Of a stretch of DNA of 62,282 nucleotides, positions 2,994 through 62,282 are shown one piece after another (position 1 is the first letter of the stretch; each line of letters starts with the position of its first letter). Where the stretch lies: positions 1 to 62,282 of IMG/VR virus record IMGVR_UViG_3300006930_000010, one strand, 5' to 3'. Source of the DNA: a virus (Duplodnaviria > Caudoviricetes). The notes beneath the pieces were generated by a model, which saw nothing but the letters and a program-made list of their open reading frames with translations, was not told where the DNA came from and did no database searches. Both the position numbers and the translations under genes were made by a program.

Positions 2994-3371
2994 GTGGAAG
3001 CAGAAGTGTCTCAAGATGACAACAGAACAAGTTGTAGCGATTTACAAATCATTCCAGAAAAGAGGATTAGTATTATGAAAGCGATAGTTGCACTAAGTAA
3101 AGAGGAGTTCACACATTTTCAAACTATACAAAACAGTTTGTATAGCAAGATTCAGGGGCACAACATGGACGAGCTGATTACATACACAAGACGATCAGGA
3201 TATGCACACTACAAGTTTGAAGGGATGTATACAGACAAACTAGTAGAACTGTTAGGTAGAGAACCATTACCTAACGAGATCATTATGCTGGTTGATGGAG
3301 GATTCAGTCACTTTGGAGCAGAATGTCACATTAGTGGACACACATTCAGCGGAAAGGTGAATACAGACTGA
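2994..3371 (+). CDS. hypothetical protein (start may be ATG 3075)
   Basis: ORF track; AGAGGA RBS before internal MKAIV. Confidence 0.6.
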   Translation: MEAEVSQDDNRTSCSDLQIIPEKRISIMKAIVALSKEEFTHFQTIQNSLYSKIQGHNMDELITYTRRSGYAHYKFEGMYTDKLVELLGREPLPNEIIMLVDGGFSHFGAECHISGHTFSGKVNTD

Positions 3372-20024: not shown

Positions 20025-20483
20025 ATGAACGTTACTGCAACAAAGGAGTTCACTTGGGATTGTGCCCATATGTTATCAGGGCATGAGGGGCTGTGCAAGA
20101 ATCTGCACGGTCATACATATAAATTAGAAGTTACGGTAGCTCGAGATAGAGGAGACTTGCAACCACTAGGACCTGCTGAGGGCATGGTGATAGACTTCAA
20201 AGAGCTTAAGGAGGTAGTAGTTCATGGGATTGTAAATCCACTAGATCATGCTACTATTATTTTTGGTCTTTCACAGGACCCCTTCGAGCGAGCCTTAGTA
20301 CAGTTGCTGCTAGAGCACGATAAGAAGATTGTGATCTTAGACTATCGACCAACAGCAGAGAATATGGTCAAGGAGTTCTTTCGCCTAATGCAATTTGAGC
20401 TTGCGGAAAAACAAGCAATGTACCATGTGGTGAAGATGAGATTATATGAGACACCAACTAGTTATGCAGAAGTCACTGAGTAG
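20025..20483 (+). CDS. queD: 6-carboxy-5,6,7,8-tetrahydropterin synthase
   Basis: CAH...CKNLHGHTY, GMVIDF, LDH, PTAEN, ETPTS. Confidence 0.92.
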   Translation: MNVTATKEFTWDCAHMLSGHEGLCKNLHGHTYKLEVTVARDRGDLQPLGPAEGMVIDFKELKEVVVHGIVNPLDHATIIFGLSQDPFERALVQLLLEHDKKIVILDYRPTAENMVKEFFRLMQFELAEKQAMYHVVKMRLYETPTSYAEVTE

Positions 20484-20688
20484 CATACTAGATTTAACAG
20501 TCCGAGAGCTATTACAGCAGAATCAGTGTGTATATATCAATGAAGAGGGACATGGAACCGGTCAACTATTCTTGGATGGTTCCAGAGTGACTAAGTTAGT
20601 TGAAGTACATATTGATGCGGCTACAGACACGTTTACAGCAGTGAAGCTGCAAGTAACAACAAAAACGAAGACGGAGGAAGTAATATGA
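20446..20688 (+). CDS. hypothetical protein
   Basis: fills the gap between queD and queE. Confidence 0.5.
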   Translation: MRHQLVMQKSLSSILDLTVRELLQQNQCVYINEEGHGTGQLFLDGSRVTKLVEVHIDAATDTFTAVKLQVTTKTKTEEVI

Positions 20689-21275
20689 CCTATCCGGTAA
20701 TGGAAGTCTTTGGATCTATCCAAGGAGAAGGAGCAATGATGGGTATGCCCGTCAATTTCATACGTCTAGCTGGATGTAATCTAGCATGTGAGTGGTGTGA
20801 CACAAAGGAATCATGGAACGCTACAGCTGATGATATGTCAGTTGAGGATATTGTAGCATTATGCAACTATCCAATTGTAGTTATCACTGGTGGAGAACCA
20901 TGCATTCATGACCTAACTGAATTACGAGAGGCTCTACAGGCTGAAGAAAAGCTAGTTTGTATTGAAACAAATGGTACACTTCCAACTGGTGAGGGTTTCG
21001 ACTGGGTTGTGTGCTCACCTAAACCACCTGAGTATTTAATACATGGTCAGTGTTGGTTTAACGAGTTGAAGTATGTTGTCGATGAAGACTTTAATGTCGA
21101 CTGTATTCCAGAAGAGCAAAAGAAAACCTGCGGATCTGTGTGGTTACAACCTTGTGATTATGGAGACGATAAGGATAAGACACAAAAGTCAATGCAACGT
21201 GCTATGGATTTGGTTCTTACTGCTGGTTATTTACGAATGGGTGTGCAGCTGCATAAGTTGCTCGGAGTTAAATAA
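20685..21275 (+). CDS. queE: 7-carboxy-7-deazaguanine synthase (radical SAM)
   Basis: SIQGEG, GCNLACEWCDT, TGGEP, IETNG, QLHK. Confidence 0.93.
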   Translation: MTYPVMEVFGSIQGEGAMMGMPVNFIRLAGCNLACEWCDTKESWNATADDMSVEDIVALCNYPIVVITGGEPCIHDLTELREALQAEEKLVCIETNGTLPTGEGFDWVVCSPKPPEYLIHGQCWFNELKYVVDEDFNVDCIPEEQKKTCGSVWLQPCDYGDDKDKTQKSMQRAMDLVLTAGYLRMGVQLHKLLGVK

Positions 21276-21277
21276 GT

Positions 21278-21517
21278 ATGAAGGCAAGTAAGGCACAAAA
21301 AGTACAACAGATGGAAACTTGGTTAATCGGTCGCGATATACAGTTTAAGAGTTTACAGAATGGACACATACAAATATTCGATCCAAGAACACAGGAGCTT
21401 AAATATCAGATGTGGGTTACCACTGAGAAGTTAAAAGAGCATAATCCAGGTGGAGAAGAAAAGGTGTGGATCGGACTTGCCGCAATACAGAACAAACTGA
21501 GGAGAGAGTATGAATAG
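21278..21517 (+). CDS. hypothetical protein
   Basis: ORF inside que operon. Confidence 0.6.
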   Translation: MKASKAQKVQQMETWLIGRDIQFKSLQNGHIQIFDPRTQELKYQMWVTTEKLKEHNPGGEEKVWIGLAAIQNKLRREYE

Positions 21518-22112
21518 CAAAAAGAAGAGACGACTGATGGAGGATGAGGTGGTTGGCGGACGAGCCAACCTCGTGTACGAGATATTGAAGACCATTCCGA
21601 AAGAGGACAGAGATCGTGCTGGTTTAGGAGACACACCTCTTCGAGTAGGATCTATGTATGACGAACTGTTTAGCGGATACCTACAGGACCCGAAAGAGAT
21701 TCTCGAGGACGCTATGTTTGTTGATGAAGGAAAAAAGAATGTTGTGTTAGTTAAAGATATACCATTCTATAGTACCTGTGAGCATCATATGATGCCATTC
21801 TTTGGAACTGTTACGATTGCCTATATTCCACAAGATGGTCGAATTGTTGGACTAAGTAAGTTAGCTCGACTAGTTGATGTGTTTGCCAGACGACTGCAAG
21901 TACAAGAACGTATTGGACAGCAGATTATGGATACGCTCAAAGAAGTAATGAATCCATTCGGTGCTGCTGTTATTATCAAAGCAAGACACACTTGTATGGA
22001 AGCTCGTGGAGTTAATAAAGTTGGAGCATATACGGTTACATCTACTCTGGATGGAGTGTTCTTTCTGGACGACAAAGCTCGTGATGAGCTATTCCAGTTA
22101 ATGCAGATATGA
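21510..22112 (+). CDS. folE: GTP cyclohydrolase I
   Basis: TPLRV, CEHHMMPF, GLSKLAR, RRLQVQER, HTCMEARG. Confidence 0.95.
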   Translation: MNSKKKRRLMEDEVVGGRANLVYEILKTIPKEDRDRAGLGDTPLRVGSMYDELFSGYLQDPKEILEDAMFVDEGKKNVVLVKDIPFYSTCEHHMMPFFGTVTIAYIPQDGRIVGLSKLARLVDVFARRLQVQERIGQQIMDTLKEVMNPFGAAVIIKARHTCMEARGVNKVGAYTVTSTLDGVFFLDDKARDELFQLMQI

Positions 22113-22453
22113 AGTCGATTGTAGTTAAAGCTCGGAAAGAGCTAATTCATCGATATGTTGACGCACCAGACGAAGTGTCCTTTCTAAGGGAGTGGCATCG
22201 TCATGAACTGCATATCGAGATGGAAGTTGACGTAAAACATTCTGATCGTGAGATTGAGTTCATCATGATTAAGAGAGAGCTGCAGTACCAATTGGATTTC
22301 AACATTAAGCTGATTAACGTTGAGAAGTCGTGTGAAATGATTGCTCAGGAAATCGCAGAGATATTTGCGATCAAACATCCAGGTCGAAAGATCAAAGTGA
22401 GTGTGTACGAAGATGGTGAGAATGGTGGAATTTACTACCATGGATTCAAATAG
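22109..22453 (+). CDS. QueD-like T-fold protein, candidate CDG decarboxylase (DpdL-like)
   Basis: LREWHRHEL (LxxxHRHx), DREIEF, SCEMIA, EDGENG; lacks the QueD CxxxHGH. Confidence 0.6.
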   Translation: MKSIVVKARKELIHRYVDAPDEVSFLREWHRHELHIEMEVDVKHSDREIEFIMIKRELQYQLDFNIKLINVEKSCEMIAQEIAEIFAIKHPGRKIKVSVYEDGENGGIYYHGFK

Positions 22454-22462
22454 GGGGAACTA

Positions 22463-23104
22463 ATGATTAATATAACAGATTATACAACACAAGCACTGAT
22501 GACAGTGAAAGATCATACATCAAAAGAGATGGCGATCGCTGACTGGGCCTTAGGATTAGGTGGTGAAACTGGAGAGGTTATCGAACTACTATCCTCTGGT
22601 GAACCTAATAAGATGGAATTAGCTAAGGAGCTAGGTGATATCCTATGGTACACGATCGCACTAGCAAATGAAGTAAATATAAACTTCCCATCTAATGCGT
22701 TTGAGGAATTAGATATCTTTGTGAATCGAAGTCATTGTACCACCTGTTTGACGGATACTAATCCCAGACAAACCGCCGTGTTGTCCATTATGACGAACAC
22801 GTGTGCAGCTCAGGAAAAAATGAAACATGCCATCATGCACAAAGAAGGATATGAAGGTAACAGCATTGAGGGAAAACTCAGTAATATTTTAGCAGGTATT
22901 GCGACAGTAGCCAAGCACTCTGGATTTACCTTATATAATGTAGCTGAACTCAATGCCGCAAAACTGGCCCATCGTTACAACGTAAAGAATGGAGGTCAGT
23001 ATTCAGTTGCGGCTAGTGCTGATAGACATGCGACTGAATCTAAGTTTGAAGATACAGCAGAGTTTAAGGCACTGTATCAAGCTATCACAGGCCTGGTATG
23101 CTAA
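22463..23104 (+). CDS. MazG-like NTP pyrophosphohydrolase
   Basis: LGLGGETGEVIE...KELGDILWY; N..KLAHRY. Confidence 0.8.
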   Translation: MINITDYTTQALMTVKDHTSKEMAIADWALGLGGETGEVIELLSSGEPNKMELAKELGDILWYTIALANEVNINFPSNAFEELDIFVNRSHCTTCLTDTNPRQTAVLSIMTNTCAAQEKMKHAIMHKEGYEGNSIEGKLSNILAGIATVAKHSGFTLYNVAELNAAKLAHRYNVKNGGQYSVAASADRHATESKFEDTAEFKALYQAITGLVC

Positions 23105-23625
23105 AGATCATTGTAGAGGGTATTGATAATGTAGGTAAGAGTACTATTGCTGGTCGTTTGGCTAAGCATTACCGCTTACCTTTATATCACGCAGAACGAC
23201 TAGATCGTGATCATATGATGCGAATTGTCACAGATGATATTATCAAGTGTGGACTGATGGACAAGGGCATTATCTTTGATCGATACTACACATCGGACAT
23301 TGTATATGAACCCCTGATGAAACATCAACCGTCACCGTTAGCTGAGCATATGGATGTTCTCTTGTCTAGATTGGACGAGATGGAATTCATTTATATCACC
23401 CTAGTGTGTACTCCAGCAGTAACGATTCAACGTTATGAGGAGTTGGGTGATGAGCTACAGAGTTTGAATACTATATTAGCTGCCGCTGATGGATATAAAA
23501 AATTGCATCGACTGATGAGCTGTAATAAGATTCTATTTGACGTATCCGAGCGGGATGTAGATTCAAATGTACGTATCTTAATTGAACTTATTGATCAACT
23601 GAAAACAGAAAGAGGTATAGAATGA
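23098..23625 (+). CDS. dNMP (thymidylate-like) kinase
   Basis: IIVEGIDNVGKST P-loop, FDRYYTSDIVY. Confidence 0.8.
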   Translation: MLKIIVEGIDNVGKSTIAGRLAKHYRLPLYHAERLDRDHMMRIVTDDIIKCGLMDKGIIFDRYYTSDIVYEPLMKHQPSPLAEHMDVLLSRLDEMEFIYITLVCTPAVTIQRYEELGDELQSLNTILAAADGYKKLHRLMSCNKILFDVSERDVDSNVRILIELIDQLKTERGIE

Positions 23626-24407
23626 AAGTAGCAACAATTCTTCCAACCCCCCTACTAGGCCAGGAACCTGCAACTGACTACAACATGTGTTTGTTTCATA
23701 TGGTTCGAGATAATGAGGAGTACGCAAAGTACTTTAGAACACTACGAGATCAAGGTAAGTTTGTTATCATGGATAACGGAGCCGCTGAGGGAGTTAATCC
23801 ATCTCCTGCTGAGCTGGCTGCTGTGTATAAGAAAGTACAACCCTCTGAGATCGTATTACCAGACATCGTATATGATAAAGAAGAAACTCTTCGAAGAACC
23901 AAAGAAGCATATATTCAGTTCTGTGACGAATTTATGCATCAACGATATCAGTTCATGGCCGTTCCTCAAGGTGAAACATTTCATGAGTGGCTGTCTTGTA
24001 TGACTGAGATGATGCAACAAAGACACATCACTACTATTGGAGTGTCTAAGTTCGTTACTCCGAAGTACCAGGAGGAGATGGGTAAGGGTACAAACGTTCG
24101 TTTAGAGTGCGTTGATGCCATTATTACTGAAGCAGCACGTCTTGGTGTTGCAATGCAGATCCATCTATTAGGTTGCTGGGATAATCCAGCAGAGGTTGGA
24201 GAGATTGACAGAGCCTTTGGAGATCGAGTACGAGGTACAGACTCCGCCATCGCTTATGTTTATACTCGAGCAGGCAAAATATACACACCAGATATCAACA
24301 GACCGGACAATACAGAAATTGACTTTAACCACGGTAGCACTGGTAAGGGTGACGTAGGTCTGCTTCAGCAGAATATGAACTCCTGGATAAAGTATTGCCA
24401 GGCATAA
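23622..24407 (+). CDS. TGT-fold protein, candidate DpdA-type 7-deazaguanine transglycosylase
   Basis: MDNGAAE, VLPD, MAVPQG, IHLLG, GTDS motif order mirrors TGT barrel; located in que cluster. Confidence 0.6.
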   Translation: MKVATILPTPLLGQEPATDYNMCLFHMVRDNEEYAKYFRTLRDQGKFVIMDNGAAEGVNPSPAELAAVYKKVQPSEIVLPDIVYDKEETLRRTKEAYIQFCDEFMHQRYQFMAVPQGETFHEWLSCMTEMMQQRHITTIGVSKFVTPKYQEEMGKGTNVRLECVDAIITEAARLGVAMQIHLLGCWDNPAEVGEIDRAFGDRVRGTDSAIAYVYTRAGKIYTPDINRPDNTEIDFNHGSTGKGDVGLLQQNMNSWIKYCQA

Positions 24408-56759: not shown

Positions 56760-58178
56760 TTAACCGTAGTACGAAGCCTCATCCCAGTAACTGACCTGCT
56801 CTCCAACTATTGTTGGGAACTGACCCGTGTAACTTGGTGTTGATGATAATACTGCGATGGCTCCTGATAGAGCATCGATGATATCATCGTGCGATCCACC
56901 AGGAAAACTCTCTGCTTCATTAAAGAATTCCACAATATTCGGACATGTACTTAGAATCTTAATTCTCTGCTTAGCTGCCAATGCACTTACTGGATTGGCT
57001 CGTTCCACTTTATTACCAGAACTTCTAATACCTGTAAACTTATATCCTTTGAATACATTGTCCTCATAGTGTTTAAGAGCTATAATCCCCGAACTACCCG
57101 GTTCTTGTTCCATACAGATCGGAACCTTTTTGCCATCACTCATAGCCACCTGCTTTTGGTCAACTTGAGTTTCTCCTGGAGCTTTTCTAACTCGGAAGAT
57201 GTCCTCTATGTAGTATATTCCACGATAGTGACTTACTTTAATCCCTACGGTGTAATCTGGATCTGCACTCTTACGTTTTCTCTTAGCAACTTCTGGATCA
57301 GTAGCGGCCATATCCCAATATCGAACAGTTTGTCGGTACGGAGGTAGCATATCTACTGCCTGAAACCACTCTCTTTTGAACATATTCCCCTTACGGACAA
57401 TAGTCCAAACACCATCTCGTAGACGGGCTCGAGTAACTGGATCAAGAACTTCCAGCATTTCTCGGTATTCATCTGCATCTAGGTAAGGGTTATCGTCCAT
57501 ACCGGCAGGAACGAACAATACACCAGGCTTTTTCGTCTCTGGATTAACAAATCTGTTATATACCCAGATACCCTGATCATCATCTGGTGGATTTGACGTT
57601 CCTCTTACCTTTATTGGGATGTCTACGCCCTTTAATCGACGTAGTCGTGAGAATATATACTTATAGTTGGTCTCGGACATATGTACGAGCTCATCAAATC
57701 CTGCATACTGGTACTCACCACCCTGGTAATTGTACTTGTCGTTCTCATTTTCCAGATAACCGAACTGTAATACCGATACTGTATCAGTATGTCGTCCATA
57801 TCGTTCGATGAATTCGAACTTACGATCCTTCTCACGCCATACAACGTTGTCAAATCGAGATAACCACTCTTTAGCTCTGTCGATGAGAGCTCCCGGTTTT
57901 ACTAAATCAGCAAATGTCTGCCTAAACAGTATCGCCGAATACCCTTTCACGTCGCTATATTGCAACGCATCCATAAGTAACGCGTCTGATTTACCGCCAC
58001 CAGCGGAGCCCCCAAAGAATGCTTCCCTACACTGTAGGTTCATAAATACCTGTTGTTTCGGTGTTGGAGTATGTAAACTATACTTTAAGCTCTTAGGCTC
58101 TAGCATCGTCAACATTTCTCGTATTTGCTTTCCGTTCAGTTGGTGGATTTTGTTCCAATCAATGTTGGCTTCCATCAT
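56760..58178 (-). CDS. terminase large subunit
   Basis: GGSAGGGKS, FDEL, SNP, WDMA, HDDIIDA. Confidence 0.93.
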   Translation of the reverse strand: MMEANIDWNKIHQLNGKQIREMLTMLEPKSLKYSLHTPTPKQQVFMNLQCREAFFGGSAGGGKSDALLMDALQYSDVKGYSAILFRQTFADLVKPGALIDRAKEWLSRFDNVVWREKDRKFEFIERYGRHTDTVSVLQFGYLENENDKYNYQGGEYQYAGFDELVHMSETNYKYIFSRLRRLKGVDIPIKVRGTSNPPDDDQGIWVYNRFVNPETKKPGVLFVPAGMDDNPYLDADEYREMLEVLDPVTRARLRDGVWTIVRKGNMFKREWFQAVDMLPPYRQTVRYWDMAATDPEVAKRKRKSADPDYTVGIKVSHYRGIYYIEDIFRVRKAPGETQVDQKQVAMSDGKKVPICMEQEPGSSGIIALKHYEDNVFKGYKFTGIRSSGNKVERANPVSALAAKQRIKILSTCPNIVEFFNEAESFPGGSHDDIIDALSGAIAVLSSTPSYTGQFPTIVGEQVSYWDEASYYG

Positions 58179-59028
58179 CTATCACCTCAGCTTCTACAAT
58201 CTCAACTTCTGCCTCAGGCTCGATTAGTCCCAACTTGTTCATAACGTTTAATACCTGCGACAGTCTTGTCTTGTCTTCTTCTAGCTTCCCAGTTACTAGC
58301 TGAGGAGCTTCTCCAGATCCTCCACTAACGGCACCCACATTGTTCTGAATATTCAGAATTTGTCGTGGAGCACCTCTGCCTTCCATAGAAGCCATACCAG
58401 TGGAGGCTCTTTCTAGCTTTACAGCCACGTCTAACATTTGCATTGCAACTTTAGGTGTCAGTAAATCTTCGTGTTCGAGGAGATATTTAGAACTGATTCG
58501 GTACAACTGTTCTGCTGTAGTAGCATGTCTATGTTCTATTTCAGCTCGTCTGAGTTCTAATTGTTCTTGTCTTTCCTGCTCTACGTAATTATCATAGGCT
58601 GTGACTCTTGCCTGCCAATGATAAGCCTGTCGGATAATCTCGACATGCTTGACTGCACTACCGACTTCCGCAGCGAGCTTAAATACTGCTCGTGATTCCT
58701 TCGTTGTGCGCATATTACGATAACGTTTAAACAGTCCATAGAACTCTATGGGTTCTCCATCCATGTGTTCCCAGATCGGGATTCCTTCGATGGTGGGCAG
58801 ACCCTCCAGATAACTTATCGGAAGGACTGCCCCCTCGGGAGGATTGTCTAATAGGTCATCTATGGGGGTGCGGAAGCCCGTCGCTAACAGAGCTTGAGGA
58901 TTGACCAATGACGTTGGACGTCCATATGTATCCAAAGGTTGCGCGTTCTGTAATTGTCCAACATATCTTTTCAGTGTGGACATCATATCGACATAAGGTT
59001 GATCCCATTTCGCTAATTCTGTTGCCAT
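58159..59028 (-). CDS. hypothetical protein, candidate terminase small subunit
   Basis: GAGGAG RBS before MATEL; upstream of TerL; FKRYRNM...WQARVTAYD. Confidence 0.55.
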   Translation of the reverse strand: MATELAKWDQPYVDMMSTLKRYVGQLQNAQPLDTYGRPTSLVNPQALLATGFRTPIDDLLDNPPEGAVLPISYLEGLPTIEGIPIWEHMDGEPIEFYGLFKRYRNMRTTKESRAVFKLAAEVGSAVKHVEIIRQAYHWQARVTAYDNYVEQERQEQLELRRAEIEHRHATTAEQLYRISSKYLLEHEDLLTPKVAMQMLDVAVKLERASTGMASMEGRGAPRQILNIQNNVGAVSGGSGEAPQLVTGKLEEDKTRLSQVLNVMNKLGLIEPEAEVEIVEAEVIDDGSQH

Positions 59029-59063
59029 TGTTGATTTCTCCTCTCCCAAGATCCTATATTAAC

Positions 59064-59092
59064 ATTATCCTATATTCGTCGAAATAAGTCAA
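59064..59092 (-). promoter_or_regulatory. promoter for structural operon
   Basis: TTGACT-17-GATAAT on - strand. Confidence 0.6.
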
Positions 59093-59532
59093 CGATTATC
59101 CCAATTATTTTTATTATCTCTACGCGTGCCGGCGACGCTATCTATGCACGGTACAGGCACCTTCGATCCTAGTTGCCCAAAGAAACCTCGAGTGAGGTCG
59201 ACCTACGGCCTACCTCCCTGAGTACCATTTGTTGAGGGCCCACTGGCGTAGCTAGCTTCCGGCGGCTGTGTCTGGGACCTATGATCCCAACAGTCCATGG
59301 ACATTTGTACATGGTATTAGACTGCGACCGCGCAGTTTATTTCTCACGACCGCGGGAGCGGGTGCAAAGCTATCTTCCTGGTCTAGCGTTAGCCTCATAT
59401 GCTGCGCATATTCGGAATGGGTGCAAAGCTATCAGCTTGTCTCGGCTGACCTCATGCGTTTCACGCATTCGGGTGGGATCACTGAGATGCGGTATGTTAT
59501 GACGGGAGAGTGGGAAAGCAACTTACTGCACC

Positions 59533-59582
59533 ACTTTATTAGTTTAAAGTGGTTTTGCTTTATTAGTTTAATGTGGTAAAGT
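59533..59582. repeat. two copies of 26-bp quasi-palindrome (left boundary of island)
   Basis: ACTTTATTAGTTTAAAGTGGTTTTGC, GCTTTATTAGTTTAATGTGGTAAAGT. Confidence 0.75.
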
Positions 59583-59791
59583 ATTTATATTAATTTAGTA
59601 TGATTGATTAGATAGTAGTTTAGTATGAATTAATTGATAGTTGTTTAGTATGTTTTAATTTATATTAATTTAGTATGATTAATATTATATTAGTTTGATA
59701 TGTGATATAGTATAGTAGTATAGTATGATATAATATATATAGTATAGTAGTATGGTATATAGTATAGTATATAGATATGTTATATATGATA

Positions 59792-59870
59792 GGGGTATAT
59801 AGGGGGGGTATATAGGGTATATATGTGGGGGGTATATAGGGGGGTATATAGATGGGTGTATATAGGGGGG
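59792..59870 (+). repeat. G-run/TATATA repeat, potential G-quadruplex
   Basis: seven G3-G7 runs separated by TATATA-like linkers. Confidence 0.8.
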
Positions 59871-59891
59871 AAAATAAAGTTAAAATAATAG

Positions 59892-59920
59892 TTGATTTAT
59901 AGTAGTAGTTAATGTATAAT
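59892..59920 (+). promoter_or_regulatory. C-free sigma-A-type promoter P1
   Basis: TTGATT-17-TATAAT. Confidence 0.8.
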
Positions 59921-59953
59921 ATAATTAAGAAATAAATAAATGAGAGGTTTGAA

Positions 59954-60199
59954 ATGAAGTTTAATAATTTTAAAGATGTTGAGAAGTATTTAGGATATGA
60001 GTTAGATTATGAGTATGATTTAGATGAAGTTGTTGGTGGTAATGATTATTATGTATATGAAGATGGAGAGTTTGAAGATATGATAATGGTTGTAAATGAT
60101 TGTTATTATTGGGTGGTAATAAGAGATGATGAAGTTAGATTTGTGTTAGAGGATGATGAGATTGAAAGAAAGATAATAGAGGATATATTGGGATTATAA
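59954..60199 (+). CDS. acidic early protein (no A/P/T/Q/H)
   Basis: GAGG RBS, own promoter, paralog of 61121-61378. Confidence 0.85.
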   Translation: MKFNNFKDVEKYLGYELDYEYDLDEVVGGNDYYVYEDGEFEDMIMVVNDCYYWVVIRDDEVRFVLEDDEIERKIIEDILGL

Positions 60200-60243
60200 G
60201 ATTAGGGTGGGTGGGTGGGAATAATAAATAATTAAAATAGTAG

Positions 60244-60272
60244 TTGATATATAGTAGTATTTGTAGTATAAT
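60244..60272 (+). promoter_or_regulatory. C-free promoter P2
   Basis: TTGATA-17-TATAAT. Confidence 0.8.
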
Positions 60273-60306
60273 ATAATTAAGAAATAAATAAATGGAGGTT
60301 TTAGAA

Positions 60307-60696
60307 ATGAAGTTTAAGAATGATGTAGTAAATGTAGAGTTTGATTTGGTAGAGTTGTTTGTGAAGAATTTGAATAATGAGAAGAGTAAAGTTGTAAGAT
60401 GTAAGAGTAAGAGTGAAGTTTTTAGAGTGTTGTATGATTTGGGAATGGATGTAAGTGAGATTAGTAGAGAAGGAGGGTGTCATTTTAGTTTTGTGTATGG
60501 AGTAGTGAGTAAAGGTTGTAAGATGAGAGAGAAAAAGAGTGGTAGTAAGAGTGATGTGATTAGAAAGATGGTATTGGAAGGAAAGAGTTGTGGTGAGATT
60601 AGTAAAGAGTTGAATAGTAATTATAGTTTTGTGTTTAGTGTTGTTAAGAAGTATAAGAATAGTGATGAGTATAAGAAAGTAGAAAAAGTGATTTAA
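60307..60696 (+). CDS. tandem HTH-repeat DNA-binding protein
   Basis: GGAGG RBS; two SKS..(F/I)R.....G....EIS.E....(F/Y)SFV repeats. Confidence 0.85.
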   Translation: MKFKNDVVNVEFDLVELFVKNLNNEKSKVVRCKSKSEVFRVLYDLGMDVSEISREGGCHFSFVYGVVSKGCKMREKKSGSKSDVIRKMVLEGKSCGEISKELNSNYSFVFSVVKKYKNSDEYKKVEKVI

Positions 60697-60706
60697 TAGA
60701 AGATAG

Positions 60707-60746
60707 AAAATAATTATTATGTAGAGATATGTAATAATTATTTTTT
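60707..60746 (+). terminator. C-free hairpin terminator
   Basis: 17-bp stem with 2 G-U pairs, GAGA loop, U tract. Confidence 0.7.
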
Positions 60747-60756
60747 AATTTAATTG

Positions 60757-60785
60757 TTGTTTTTTATTGGTGTTTATGTTATAAT
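60757..60785 (+). promoter_or_regulatory. C-free promoter P3
   Basis: TTGTTT-17-TATAAT with TG extended -10. Confidence 0.7.
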
Positions 60786-60819
60786 ATAATTAATAAATAA
60801 ATTATAGGAGGTTATGGTT

Positions 60820-60984
60820 ATGGATGTTAATAAGTTATTGGTGTTATTGGATGAAGATGTAAATGTGGATGATGTGTTGTTAGGATTGGATGATAATGAA
60901 AAATATTGTGTGTTAAATTTGATGTTGGTGTTTGATAAGTTAGATGGTAAGTTTGAGTTAATATTTAATAGTATTGATAAGTAA
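60820..60984 (+). CDS. small acidic protein (not in ORF track)
   Basis: AGGAGG RBS; MDVNKLLVLLDEDVNVDDVLLGLDDNEKYCVLNLMLVFDKLDGKFELIFNSIDK. Confidence 0.75.
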   Translation: MDVNKLLVLLDEDVNVDDVLLGLDDNEKYCVLNLMLVFDKLDGKFELIFNSIDK

Positions 60985-60996
60985 TAAGTAATAGTT

Positions 60997-61050
60997 ATAA
61001 ATAAAGATTAATTAATAGTTAGGAATAATTATTAATTAATTTTTATTTAT
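60997..61050 (+). terminator. C-free hairpin terminator
   Basis: 25-bp stem with 2 G-U pairs, GGAA loop. Confidence 0.7.
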
Positions 61051-61057
61051 TTAATAG

Positions 61058-61086
61058 TTGATTTATAGTATGAGTTGTGGTATAAT
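61058..61086 (+). promoter_or_regulatory. C-free promoter P4
   Basis: TTGATT-17-TATAAT with TG extended -10. Confidence 0.8.
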
Positions 61087-61120
61087 ATAATTAAGAAGTA
61101 AATAAATAGGAGGTTTAGAG

Positions 61121-61378
61121 ATGGAGTTTTTTAGTTTAGATGAGTATTTGAGTTTTGTGGAATTAGATGGTGAAGTAAGTGATGAGTTAAGAAAGAAGTG
61201 GTTAGATAGAATAAATGGGAGGAAAGTGTATATAAATGTAGATGGTGATGTTGAGAATGTGATAGTAGTATTAGATGATAATGAGTATTATTGGGGAATA
61301 GAGAGTAAGAATGATGTAAGATTTGTTGAGATTGAGAAAGAGTTGATTGATGAGTGGAAAGAGAATGATTTAATATAA
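61121..61378 (+). CDS. acidic early protein (no A/P/T/Q/H)
   Basis: AGGAGG RBS; paralog of 59954-60199. Confidence 0.85.
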   Translation: MEFFSLDEYLSFVELDGEVSDELRKKWLDRINGRKVYINVDGDVENVIVVLDDNEYYWGIESKNDVRFVEIEKELIDEWKENDLI

Positions 61379-61404
61379 ATAATTAAATTTTTATTAAATA
61401 GTTG

Positions 61405-61433
61405 TTGTGTTTTAATAGGAATTGTAGTATAAT
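61405..61433 (+). promoter_or_regulatory. C-free promoter P5
   Basis: TTGTGT-17-TATAAT. Confidence 0.65.
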
Positions 61434-61463
61434 AAGTATATAGAAAGATATGAGGTGAAAGAA

Positions 61464-61646
61464 ATGAATGATGTGATTAGAAAGTTGTTTGAAGATGATT
61501 TGGAAGAAAGTGGTTTGAGTTTTGAAGAATATGTTGAAGAAGGAAATATGGATTTGAGTTTTATGAATATTGTGAGAGATGGAATTGATGAAGAAGTTGA
61601 AGATGAAGTTGTTGTGAAAGTTTGGAATGAGTTTAAGTTAAGATAA
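61464..61646 (+). CDS. small highly acidic protein
   Basis: GAGGTG RBS before ATG 61464; D/E-rich. Confidence 0.8.
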   Translation: MNDVIRKLFEDDLEESGLSFEEYVEEGNMDLSFMNIVRDGIDEEVEDEVVVKVWNEFKLR

Positions 61647-61669
61647 ATAGTTAAATATGAATTGATATG

Positions 61670-61717
61670 AATAAGAATTAATTAATAGTTAGAAATAATT
61701 ATTAATTAATTTTTATT
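61670..61717 (+). terminator. C-free hairpin terminator
   Basis: 22-bp stem with 2 G-U pairs, GAAA loop; near copy of 60997-61050. Confidence 0.7.
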
Positions 61718-61862
61718 TGTTGTTAGGAATAATTATTAATTAGGATGAGTTGGGTAGTTAGGAATAAGTTTTAATTAAGAATTGTTATTAGTTAGGAATT
61801 AAATGAATTTTAAATTGATTTAATTATTTGTTAGGAATGATTAGGAATTAAGAATGATTGTT

Positions 61863-62073
61863 ACTTTAGTAGTTTAAAGTGGTAAAGTGGAGTGGGTCAC
61901 TTTACTAGTTTAAAGTGATAAAGTTAACTAGGTTAACTTTAGTAGTTTAACGTGGTAAAGTGTTTGGGTCTATATTAGTATATTATGATATAAGGATTAC
62001 CCTATGGAACTTTACCACTTTAACGTGGCAAAGTGCGACTGGGTCCTACTTTACCAGTTTAACGTGCTAAAGT
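61863..62073. repeat. five copies of 26-bp quasi-palindrome (right boundary of island)
   Basis: starts 61863, 61899, 61936, 62009, 62048; idealised palindrome ACTTTACCACTTTAAAGTGGTAAAGT. Confidence 0.85.
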
Positions 62074-62129
62074 AGAAGCTCGGTCCTAGGGACGGCACTT
62101 CGTGCCCCTGAATAAATATAAATACACTG

Positions 62130-62158
62130 TTGACTTTCTCTTTAAGACGTAGTATAAT
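62130..62158 (+). promoter_or_regulatory. sigma-A promoter
   Basis: TTGACT-17-TATAAT. Confidence 0.75.
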
Positions 62159-62193
62159 AAGAGTATCAAATAAAGAAAGAGAGTGTGAGTCAA

Positions 62194-62282
62194 ATGAACA
62201 CATTGTTGATTAACAAAATTAAGAAGTTGTACAAAGAAAAAGTGAAAGTTCAAGAGTTCGTAGCATCGTTAGATGATGTAGA
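62194..62282 (+). CDS. partial ORF running off the window
   Basis: MNTLLINKIKKLYKEKVKVQEFVASLDDV after promoter. Confidence 0.55.
   Translation, partial: MNTLLINKIKKLYKEKVKVQEFVASLDDV

Follow-up and report, generated by a model that had tools for sequence, protein, structure and literature searches.

Immediately upstream of an early promoter in the phage genome held in IMG/VR as record IMGVR_UViG_3300006930_000010 lies an array of seven guanine runs (positions 59792 to 59870), housed in a block of 2305 nt whose sense strand contains a single cytosine. Here, we describe this array together with the block around it and a second G-quadruplex (G4) motif, (GGGT)3GGG, placed between the first two genes of the same block; the window throughout is the whole virus record, which is linear, 62,282 nt long and has an estimated completeness of 95%. 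The interpretation that we favour, tentatively and with rather less than even confidence, is that both G-tracts act as structural punctuation at the level of RNA, in transcripts that are unable to form G-C hairpins.

Two G-tracts in a cytosine-free early module

The features on which this interpretation is built are the following.

59559 to 61863, + strand: cytosine-free block of 2305 nt (859 A, 1 C, 575 G, 870 T).
59792 to 59870, + strand: G-run array; seven G-runs (4, 7, 3, 6, 6, 3 and 6 nt) with TATATA-type spacers and a unit of 9-15 nt.
59892 to 59920, + strand: promoter P1, TTGATT-17-TATAAT, followed by a GAGAGG ribosome-binding site and open reading frame (ORF) 1.
60205 to 60219, + strand: (GGGT)3GGG, with the array the window's only canonical G4 sequence, separated by 6 nt from the stop codon of ORF1 and by 24 nt from the -35 element of P2, between which it lies.
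60244 to 60272, + strand: promoter P2, TTGATA-17-TATAAT, paralogous to P1 and P4.
60703 to 60746, + strand: A-U-only hairpin and T-run after ORF2, terminator-like (-19.8 kcal/mol, no G-C pairs).
60997 to 61050, + strand: A-U-only hairpin and T-run after ORF3 (-23.3 kcal/mol).
61667 to 61718, + strand: A-U-only hairpin and T-run after ORF5 (-24.0 kcal/mol).

The array reads GGGG TATATA GGGGGGG TATATA GGG TATATATGT GGGGGG TATATA GGGGGG TATATAGAT GGG TGTATATA GGGGGG, and Tandem Repeats Finder reports it (59783 to 59870) as 7.0 copies of a 13-nt period with the consensus TATATATGGGGG. Its last G, at 59870, is followed after 21 nt by the -35 element of P1, which bears out the count and the position given in an earlier note on this DNA (seven G-runs ending about 20 bp before that promoter). 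The array is real and not a chance feature: the record holds 11 G-runs of at least 5 nt, the four of at least 6 nt all lie within the array, and when the 2305-nt block was shuffled 5000 times by mononucleotide, four or more G6 runs arose in 3 shuffles, seven or more G3+ runs within 79 nt in 1, and both together in 0. The array scores 1.73 in G4Hunter, for which a threshold of 1.5 was used, and it is the only place in the window where 25-nt scores on the G strand reach at least 1.5. When G4 motifs were defined as G3+ runs with loops of 1-7 nt, the window contained two on the G strand (59792 to 59817 and 60205 to 60219) and none on the C strand, the full array fitting the pattern only if loops of up to 12 nt are allowed.

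The second of these motifs, (GGGT)3GGG, has a G4Hunter score of 2.4 against the same threshold and lies within the transcript predicted from P1. As RNA, it is assigned about -36 kcal/mol by ViennaRNA with G-quadruplex energies, as opposed to 0 without them, and no competing structure is found. It is retained in a relative of about 90% identity present in wastewater contigs, whose similarity sets in at 60203, 2 nt ahead of the motif, after unrelated sequence; none of the 19 substitutions listed, out of the contig's 20, falls within 60205 to 60219, which leaves the motif with at most one change. The same 15-mer also occurs in four other viral contigs (L139, L140, L141 and L143), at transcript-boundary positions in each. 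Two of them, L140 and L143, carry four copies apiece, each placed 4-8 nt before a GGAGG ribosome-binding site and start codon (in L140 at 1121, 3001, 3535 and 5276); the copy in L141 (2447, reverse strand) is directly 3' of a TTGACA...TAAAAT promoter, at its start site, and that in L139 (3001) comes after terminator-type hairpins. As a separate observation on L140, the 240 nt ahead of its first copy are free of C and code for a small hydrophobic peptide.

Each of the five ORFs of the block has its own TTGnnn-17-TATAAT promoter and GGAGG-type ribosome-binding site, and P1, P2 and P4 are clearly paralogous cassettes. The two G-tracts end 21 and 24 nt before the -35 elements of P1 and P2, while P3, P4 and P5 are preceded by A-U hairpins (weaker before P5); because spacings and hairpin placement match, the G-tracts can be said to share one position relative to paralogous promoters, like the A-U hairpins before P3 to P5. 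The hairpins after ORF2, ORF3 and ORF5 are purely A-U since C-free RNA allows no G-C pair. ORF1 alone among the five genes has no A-U hairpin behind it, and the site is occupied by (GGGT)3GGG. A GC hairpin before P6, considered as the C-allowed counterpart of the G-tracts, was dropped, having only 5 pairs and a fold z-score of -1.3.

In the mechanism that we propose, the array would mark the upstream boundary of the leading cassette in a series of five, each with a paralogous early promoter. As a C-free sense strand can form no G-C hairpin, stable structure in its RNA would have to come from either long A-U hairpins or G-runs, and the module would employ both, with A-U hairpins and U-runs after ORF2, ORF3 and ORF5 and G-tracts before P1 and between ORF1 and P2. 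The G-tracts would most likely work as RNA built from ordinary GTP, because the virion DNA, most probably containing 7-deazaguanine, should not form G-quartets; in the modified duplex the G-tracts would stay inert. RNA G-quadruplexes could then punctuate the cassette junctions, stopping or insulating read-through, shielding transcript ends from exonucleases, or both. That the array is transcribed, that either tract folds in vivo and that the fold has an effect is what we infer from this arrangement.

Two further features, both upstream of the array, matter for weighing this proposal and its rivals.

59587 to 59749, + strand: about six copies of an AT-rich, C-free 25-nt repeat, consensus ATAGTAGTTTAGTATGATTAATTAG, directly upstream of the array; possibly an unwinding or iteron region.
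59724 to 59734, + strand: P0, a weak candidate promoter of the extended -10 type (TATGaTATAAT) with no -35 element at proper spacing.

Several observations count against RNA-level punctuation, most of them at the array. Since its loops are 6 nt or longer, the array gains only 3.8 kcal/mol when G-quadruplex energies are added in ViennaRNA. It lies upstream of P1, and the sole promoter candidate further upstream, P0, has no -35 element, with about 6 TATAAT sites expected by chance at this composition (computed from base counts); were P0 active, the array would fall inside its transcript. No hairpin or T-run is found at or after the array, and neither a hairpin nor a U-run at or after (GGGT)3GGG, so that neither tract has the make-up of an intrinsic terminator. 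The constant TATATA spacer, and the occurrence of TATATAGGGGG arrays in unrelated viral contigs, fit recognition of the duplex better than they fit a role as G4 alone. C is also missing from the 395 nt upstream of ORF1, for which transcription is no more than a possibility, and the constraint may act at the level of DNA; C-free DNA upstream of P1 argues for either transcription from further upstream or such a DNA-level constraint.

A last point concerns the scarcity of G-runs outside the two tracts. The rest of the block holds 7 G3+ runs in 2202 nt, where shuffling gives 22.6 +/- 3.8 (0 of 2000 shuffles with 7 or fewer), and the ORFs hold 6, as compared with 14.1 +/- 2.4 when synonymous C-free codons are drawn uniformly (0 of 5000). 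When codon order is shuffled instead, the same 6 compare with 10.1 +/- 2.3, a borderline result (P = 0.052) that again weakens the case for RNA-level punctuation, as the scarce GGG and AGG codons may merely mirror AT-rich codon usage. The depletion of G-runs, which in itself speaks for an RNA-level role, is thus suggestive, not conclusive. Among the sequencing runs listed for this DNA none is of RNA, the wastewater contigs give no cover over 59804 to 59916 and are uninformative both on absence of the array and on its expression, and a scan of 58900 to 62282 with Rfam returned no family at or near threshold (top hit ylbH, 19.7 bits against a gathering score of 50).

Predicted guanine modification and the exclusion of cytosine

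The expectation that neither G-tract can fold in packaged DNA derives from a set of genes for 7-deazaguanine, recognized by homology and synteny.

20025 to 24407, + strand: 7-deazaguanine gene set, adjoining PolA.
20025 to 20483, + strand: QueD (PF01242, E 6e-29).
20685 to 21275, + strand: QueE (phrog_2076, E 1.3e-40).
21510 to 22112, + strand: FolE (PF01227, E 1.7e-64).
22109 to 22453, + strand: DpdL-like protein, 114 amino acids, motif L-REW-HRH-E-L (L-x3-HRH-x-L).
22463 to 23104, + strand: MazG-like protein.
23098 to 23625, + strand: kinase-like protein.
23622 to 24407, + strand: DpdA3-like protein, 261 amino acids, homologue of phiST CGPG_00065.

The 261-residue protein is 29% identical to phiST CGPG_00065 over 201 amino acids (E 3e-23) and also matches a protein of Flavobacterium phage immuto 2-6A annotated as 'DNA guanine transglycosylase'; it gave no Pfam TGT match. 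The 114-residue protein is 33% identical to phiST CGPG_00067 (E 1e-11), its motif ending in L where the signature LxxxHRHxF has F, and the order of the set nearly equals that of phiST. QueC found no match among 61 ORFs compared with PHROGs or 28 compared with Pfam, about 3.6 kb of the genome being inferred to lie outside the window. According to Hutinet et al. (2023; PMC10516641), CGPG_00065 is DpdA3 and CGPG_00067 is DpdL, a proposed CDG decarboxylase with the signature above; phiST DNA contains 302,000 dDG per million nucleotides and is fully dDG-substituted, complete replacement is given for DpdA3 phages, and base exchange by DpdA is thought to be post-replicative. The phage described here therefore probably replaces G with 7-deazaguanine, a conclusion well supported by homology, and the absence of guanine N7 predicted in the earlier note gains the support of gene order as well (FolE, QueD, QueE, DpdL-like, DpdA3-like). 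Its premise that 7-deazaguanine abolishes G-quartets agrees with PMC3905856, according to which the base blocks Hoogsteen pairing and G4 folding. Given this chemistry and the predicted substitution, packaged DNA should be unable to form G-quartets at either tract, and RNA made from GTP should be able to do so.

The genes of the cytosine-free block are listed below.

59954 to 60199, + strand: ORF1, 81 amino acids, acidic; no C in the gene.
60292 to 60696, + strand: ORF2, 134 amino acids, a double helix-turn-helix (HTH) protein with a family of 91 homologues.
60481 to 60483, + strand: CAT codon with the only C of the block (60481), encoding His64 of ORF2.
60814 to 60984, + strand: ORF3, 56 amino acids; no C.
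61121 to 61378, + strand: ORF4, 85 amino acids; no C.
61455 to 61646, + strand: ORF5, 63 amino acids, probable start ATG at 61464; no C.

The block consists of C-free runs of 922 and 1382 nt, the next longest in the record being 49 nt, and the GC skew of 60001 to 62000 is 0.96. Its sense RNA thus lacks C, and its antisense RNA lacks G and has about 25% C. The exclusion reaches both coding and non-coding DNA. The 419 residues of ORF1 to ORF5 are drawn from 15 amino acids plus a single His, Pro, Thr, Ala and Gln being absent, and the 1033 nt of non-coding sequence, among them the array-bearing 395 nt upstream of ORF1, have zero C. The block contains no GC-containing palindromes, as compared with 36.5 four-base palindromes per kb elsewhere. 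The one histidine, His64 of ORF2, is invariant across 21 aligned family members. ORFs at 59268 to 59579 were rejected as genes, their translations being implausible and without a family match.

Relatives of ORF2 bear on whether this composition is under selection. Among 95 candidates, 91 are homologues at E <= 0.001, and four of these (P0003, P0004, P0080 and P0091; 46-93% identical to ORF2) are devoid of Pro, Thr, Ala and Gln, their single His being the conserved one; two further homologues have at most 3 such residues, for which the family median is 13.8%. Where ordinary members read ..GKTPGEI.. and ..IAK.., the C-free members read ..GKSCGEI.. and ..ISR.., so that the changes are replacements by similar residues and not simple C-to-T decay. 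The relative of about 90% identity covers 60203 to 60699 in contigs of two wastewater runs, for which 38 and 54 substitutions are listed, and 0 of these 38 + 54 go to C (no T>C, A>C or G>C). It joins 60699 directly to 61666, without 60700 to 61665 (ORF3 to ORF5), and for this reason the early genes seem to behave as swappable cassettes, gained and lost between bounding hairpin or G-tract elements. In L004, the nearest IMG/VR relative by TerL (62% identity), a stretch of about 700 nt that includes the HTH gene is poor in C (1.1%), and at more distant HTH loci C content is mildly low or normal. We conclude from these comparisons that C is kept off this strand by selection in this lineage.

The wider searches returned little of the module itself. 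Megablast of 57500 to 62282 against 50,697 phage records gave zero matches, and a promoter-cassette pattern scan gave 14 AT-rich chance matches and 0 relatives. Searching viral contigs with ORF2 as a single protein gave 1 weak locus, and scans based on an alignment gave viral (2), metagenome (7) and genome (1) loci; none of these has a C-free block or G-only array. The only HTH-family match in 185,579 species genomes, L138 (863 to 1156), has normal C content (24.5%) and sits on a 4-kb contig of a metagenome-assembled genome of Candidatus Lithacetigena glycinireducens, a weak hint at the host group. Nor do C-free modules appear to be a general trait of DpdA3 phages, an idea rejected for the three cultured phages compared, phiST, BSP7 and Youna2, in which runs of at least 158 nt free of C or of G are absent (0 of 3), which speaks against a simple link to deazaguanine.

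The flanks of the block have features of their own. Between terS and the block, 59120 to 59520 is a GC-rich stretch that is not coding-like, contains a direct repeat GGGTGCAAAGCTATC in 2 copies, has a fold z-score of -1.9 and has no Rfam match (its top score being the 19.7 bits, against 50, given above); L004 and L054 have GC-rich repeat segments at the equivalent place. Inverted repeats of the ACTTTA..TAGTTTAAAGTG..TAAAGT type flank the block on the left (59530 to 59580, 2 copies) and on the right (61863 to 62070, about 5), and could be boundary, operator or recombination sites; the fold of 61860 to 61935 reaches -25.8 kcal/mol (z -6.0). A public contig of 65,921 nt carries a stretch of the window at positions that imply circular permutation, and on this evidence the record appears to lack about 3.6 kb of the genome, in which a 44-nt piece of the HTH gene recurs, with C-containing sequence after it.

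Competing readings of the array

The rival that survives best, doubtful in itself and yet a credible account, is that the array is a set of protein-binding repeats in duplex DNA, such as a terminase small-subunit (pac/cos) site, origin iterons beside readily melting AT-rich DNA or operators for an early regulator (e.g. the double-HTH protein, whose gene is a short way downstream), in which case G-quartet chemistry would be irrelevant. The seven TATATA-G units lie beside the AT-rich 25-nt repeats, about six of which precede them, and 743 bp upstream of the start of terS, at the divergent junction between late (-) and early (+) genes where the cumulative GC skew of the record has its minimum. 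The spacer is constant and the length of the G-run varies, and such a spacer resembles a sequence recognized as duplex. Relatives with the HTH gene have their own, differing repeat arrays at the equivalent place upstream of that gene, namely GGGCGCCCAAC-type repeats in L054 and its kin, and three 22-nt repeats with AACCTA arrays in L053.

Arrays of the TATATAGGGGG type also occur in unrelated viral contigs. The exact 16-mer GGGGGTATATAGGGGG has 54 matches in viral contigs, a count that by itself carries no weight without a chance expectation, and 19 of these 54 exact-seed matches have at least five G4+ runs within 60 nt. One such array sits between a Q-like regulator gene and terL, and a FolE homologue was found in 0 of the 5 array-bearing records searched, so that these arrays occur without signs of deazaguanine. 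Seven loci (L080, L093, L066, L074, L072, L104 and L059, at about position 3001) have intergenic tandem arrays of the TATATA-GGGGG type in contigs of 32-63% GC, several of them near contig ends. Two points tell against binding to the duplex. The irregular unit length (9-15 nt) is ill suited to cooperative or helically phased binding, and (GGGT)3GGG, an archetypal minimal-loop G4 that recurs before ribosome-binding sites in other phages, is left unexplained.

An unlikely alternative is that the array is a neutral slippage repeat, in which a TATATA-Gn unit expanded within an AT-rich spacer closed to C and was merely tolerated. Its irregular G-run lengths and spacers are what slippage would leave, and a homologous array was recovered in no relative: 0 of 10 DNA loci with the HTH gene, L004 included, have a G-only array, L004 alone having a G-rich, C-containing segment there. 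Passive build-up, however, is hard to square with the depletion of G-runs in the rest of the block (7 against 22.6 expected), with the like distance (21 and 24 nt) of both G-tracts from the -35 elements of paralogous promoters and with retention of the second motif in a diverged relative.

The earlier note had proposed that the tract folds as DNA only when unmodified, and so acts as a sensor of modification state, or that it is an R-loop or primer-forming element. Recast with what is now at hand, this becomes a DNA G4 that folds in newly replicated DNA and reports to P1, or a G-rich non-template strand that stabilizes an R-loop and primes replication, and either form is very improbable. The predicted modification holds by homology, the post-replicative action of DpdA outlined in PMC10516641 implies that unmodified DNA exists transiently, and rightward transcription would have the G-runs on its non-template strand, beside very AT-rich DNA. 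However, three of the five promoters of the same family have no G-tract, no tie between the tract and P1 activity was seen, and no promoter is established as reading into the tract, which leaves both the sensor and the primer unsupported. A DNA:RNA hybrid G4 is moreover excluded on a modified template, and no association of deazaguanine genes with such elements was found (the 0 of 3 cultured DpdA3-like phages with a C-free run of at least 158 nt, and FolE in 0 of 5 array records). The note missed the decisive context, which is the C-free early module and a second G4 motif inside the transcript; because the tract stands in such a module, with that motif within a transcript, a role in RNA or in the duplex is favoured over a DNA G4.

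Equally improbable is a role for the opposite strand, on which leftward transcription would give (C3-7 UAUAUA)7, a G-free and C-rich RNA of about 80 nt that might load Rho and halt antisense transcripts before the late terS operon, the C-free sense RNA being invisible to Rho: the composition of the two RNAs, two promoter-like sites on the - strand inside the block (60830 to 60801 and 60647 to 60620, 11 of 12 positions each) and a period of about 12-13 nt and length of about 80 nt, comparable to the RNA footprint of the Rho hexamer, all suit it, but it requires Rho in the host, the entire antisense RNA would already be a Rho substrate, making a dedicated array seem needless, and the consensus promoter scan barely exceeds expectation (28 sites against 21.2 +/- 5.2 in shuffles).

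Significance and comparison with known systems

RNA-level punctuation is a proposal about the G-tracts, and a broader one can be made for the block as a whole, namely that a phage which turns all G into 7-deazaguanine keeps a 2.3-kb 'boot' module with a G-free template, and hence no modified base in it, and a C-free RNA, in which RNA G-quadruplexes and A-U hairpins replace G-C hairpins and the array is the entry gate. We regard this as rather unlikely in its full form. If true, the first genes would be readable in any modification state, and would escape any host activity dependent on C in RNA or on G in the template, for instance Rho loading, mRNA interferases of the ACA or UACAU type, CTP-analogue chain terminators and excision of modified bases. 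Taken singly, the causes that might exclude C are (a) a template strand free of the modified base, which would make the early genes readable whatever the state of modification or the attack on it; (b) a sense RNA that Rho could not load, with an antisense RNA that it readily would; (c) immunity to mRNA interferases with C-containing sites; (d) protection from chain-terminating CTP analogues or from a shortage of CTP; and (e) freedom from GC-containing palindromes in the first DNA to enter.

If the virion DNA is 7-deazaguanine DNA, the phage is a natural control experiment for G4 motifs, in that a conserved, well-placed motif in quartet-incompetent DNA would imply that phage motifs of this kind work in RNA or simply as duplex. 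Keeping C off one strand over 2.3 kb costs five proteins the use of four amino acids, an indication that a strong activity of host or phage is directed against RNA cytosine or template-strand guanine in the first minutes of infection, and naming that activity could reveal a principle of defence or counter-defence. Long natural sequences without one nucleotide are rare, according to the abstract of PMC6526412. A full-text literature search that covered few subscription journals found no description of C-free phage genes or of G-tracts in deazaguanine phages. We rate the tract as a variant that belongs with known promoter-proximal G-tract or short-repeat elements, and the C-free module as the more remarkable object, which could prove to be something new in kind should the cause of its selection come to light.

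The closest comparison for the modification is the dDG system of Cellulophaga phage phiST, whose FolE-QueD-QueE-DpdL-DpdA3 set beside a DNA polymerase gene is matched here in content and nearly in order, with DpdL-like and DpdA3-like proteins in the last two places; no QueC was found here, as stated for the ORFs compared above. The two phages differ in that phiST has no C-free stretch of at least 158 nt, in that modification in the present phage is a prediction from its genes, and in the last residue of the DpdL-type signature, which is L here and not F.

For the array, a counterpart is found in human mitochondrial CSB II (G6AG8), where a G4 in nascent RNA ends transcription and leaves a primer for replication. 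Both have G-runs on the non-template strand near promoters and AT-rich DNA, and in both a dependence on guanine N7 is a property that 7-deaza-GTP can probe. In contrast to CSB II, a promoter reading into the phage array is only a candidate (P0, with no -35 element), the phage non-template strand is predicted to contain 7-deazaguanine, so that a hybrid DNA:RNA quadruplex could not form, and the single bipartite run of CSB II is replaced by seven runs with 6-nt spacers. The second motif resembles (GGGT)4-type sequences, which form a parallel quadruplex with one-nucleotide loops, and the intercistronic leaders of other phages, being exactly (GGGT)3GGG and lying between two early genes at a cassette boundary; unlike in L140 and L143, where the motif is 4-8 nt from the ribosome-binding site, a complete P2 promoter intervenes here.

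T7-type genomes, whose leading end has arrays of short repeats and early DNA free of targets, offer a parallel to the organization of the block, as does the T5 first-step-transfer region. Shared with these are non-coding short tandem repeats, downstream of which come several strong promoters of the host type and small early genes close to those for packaging, and DNA without GC-containing palindromes; the phage departs from them in that one strand does without a whole base for 2.3 kb, an exclusion that extends to the amino acids its proteins use. In its composition, finally, the block is akin to what is described by Szybalski's transcription-direction rule, or purine loading, a mild natural bias, and to the laboratory 'G-less cassette', a transcript without one nucleotide, since the strand bias is tied to the direction of transcription and one nucleotide is missing from the transcript. 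Unlike in natural purine loading, the exclusion here is absolute, with 1 C in 2305 nt and five proteins made without Pro, Thr, Ala or Gln.

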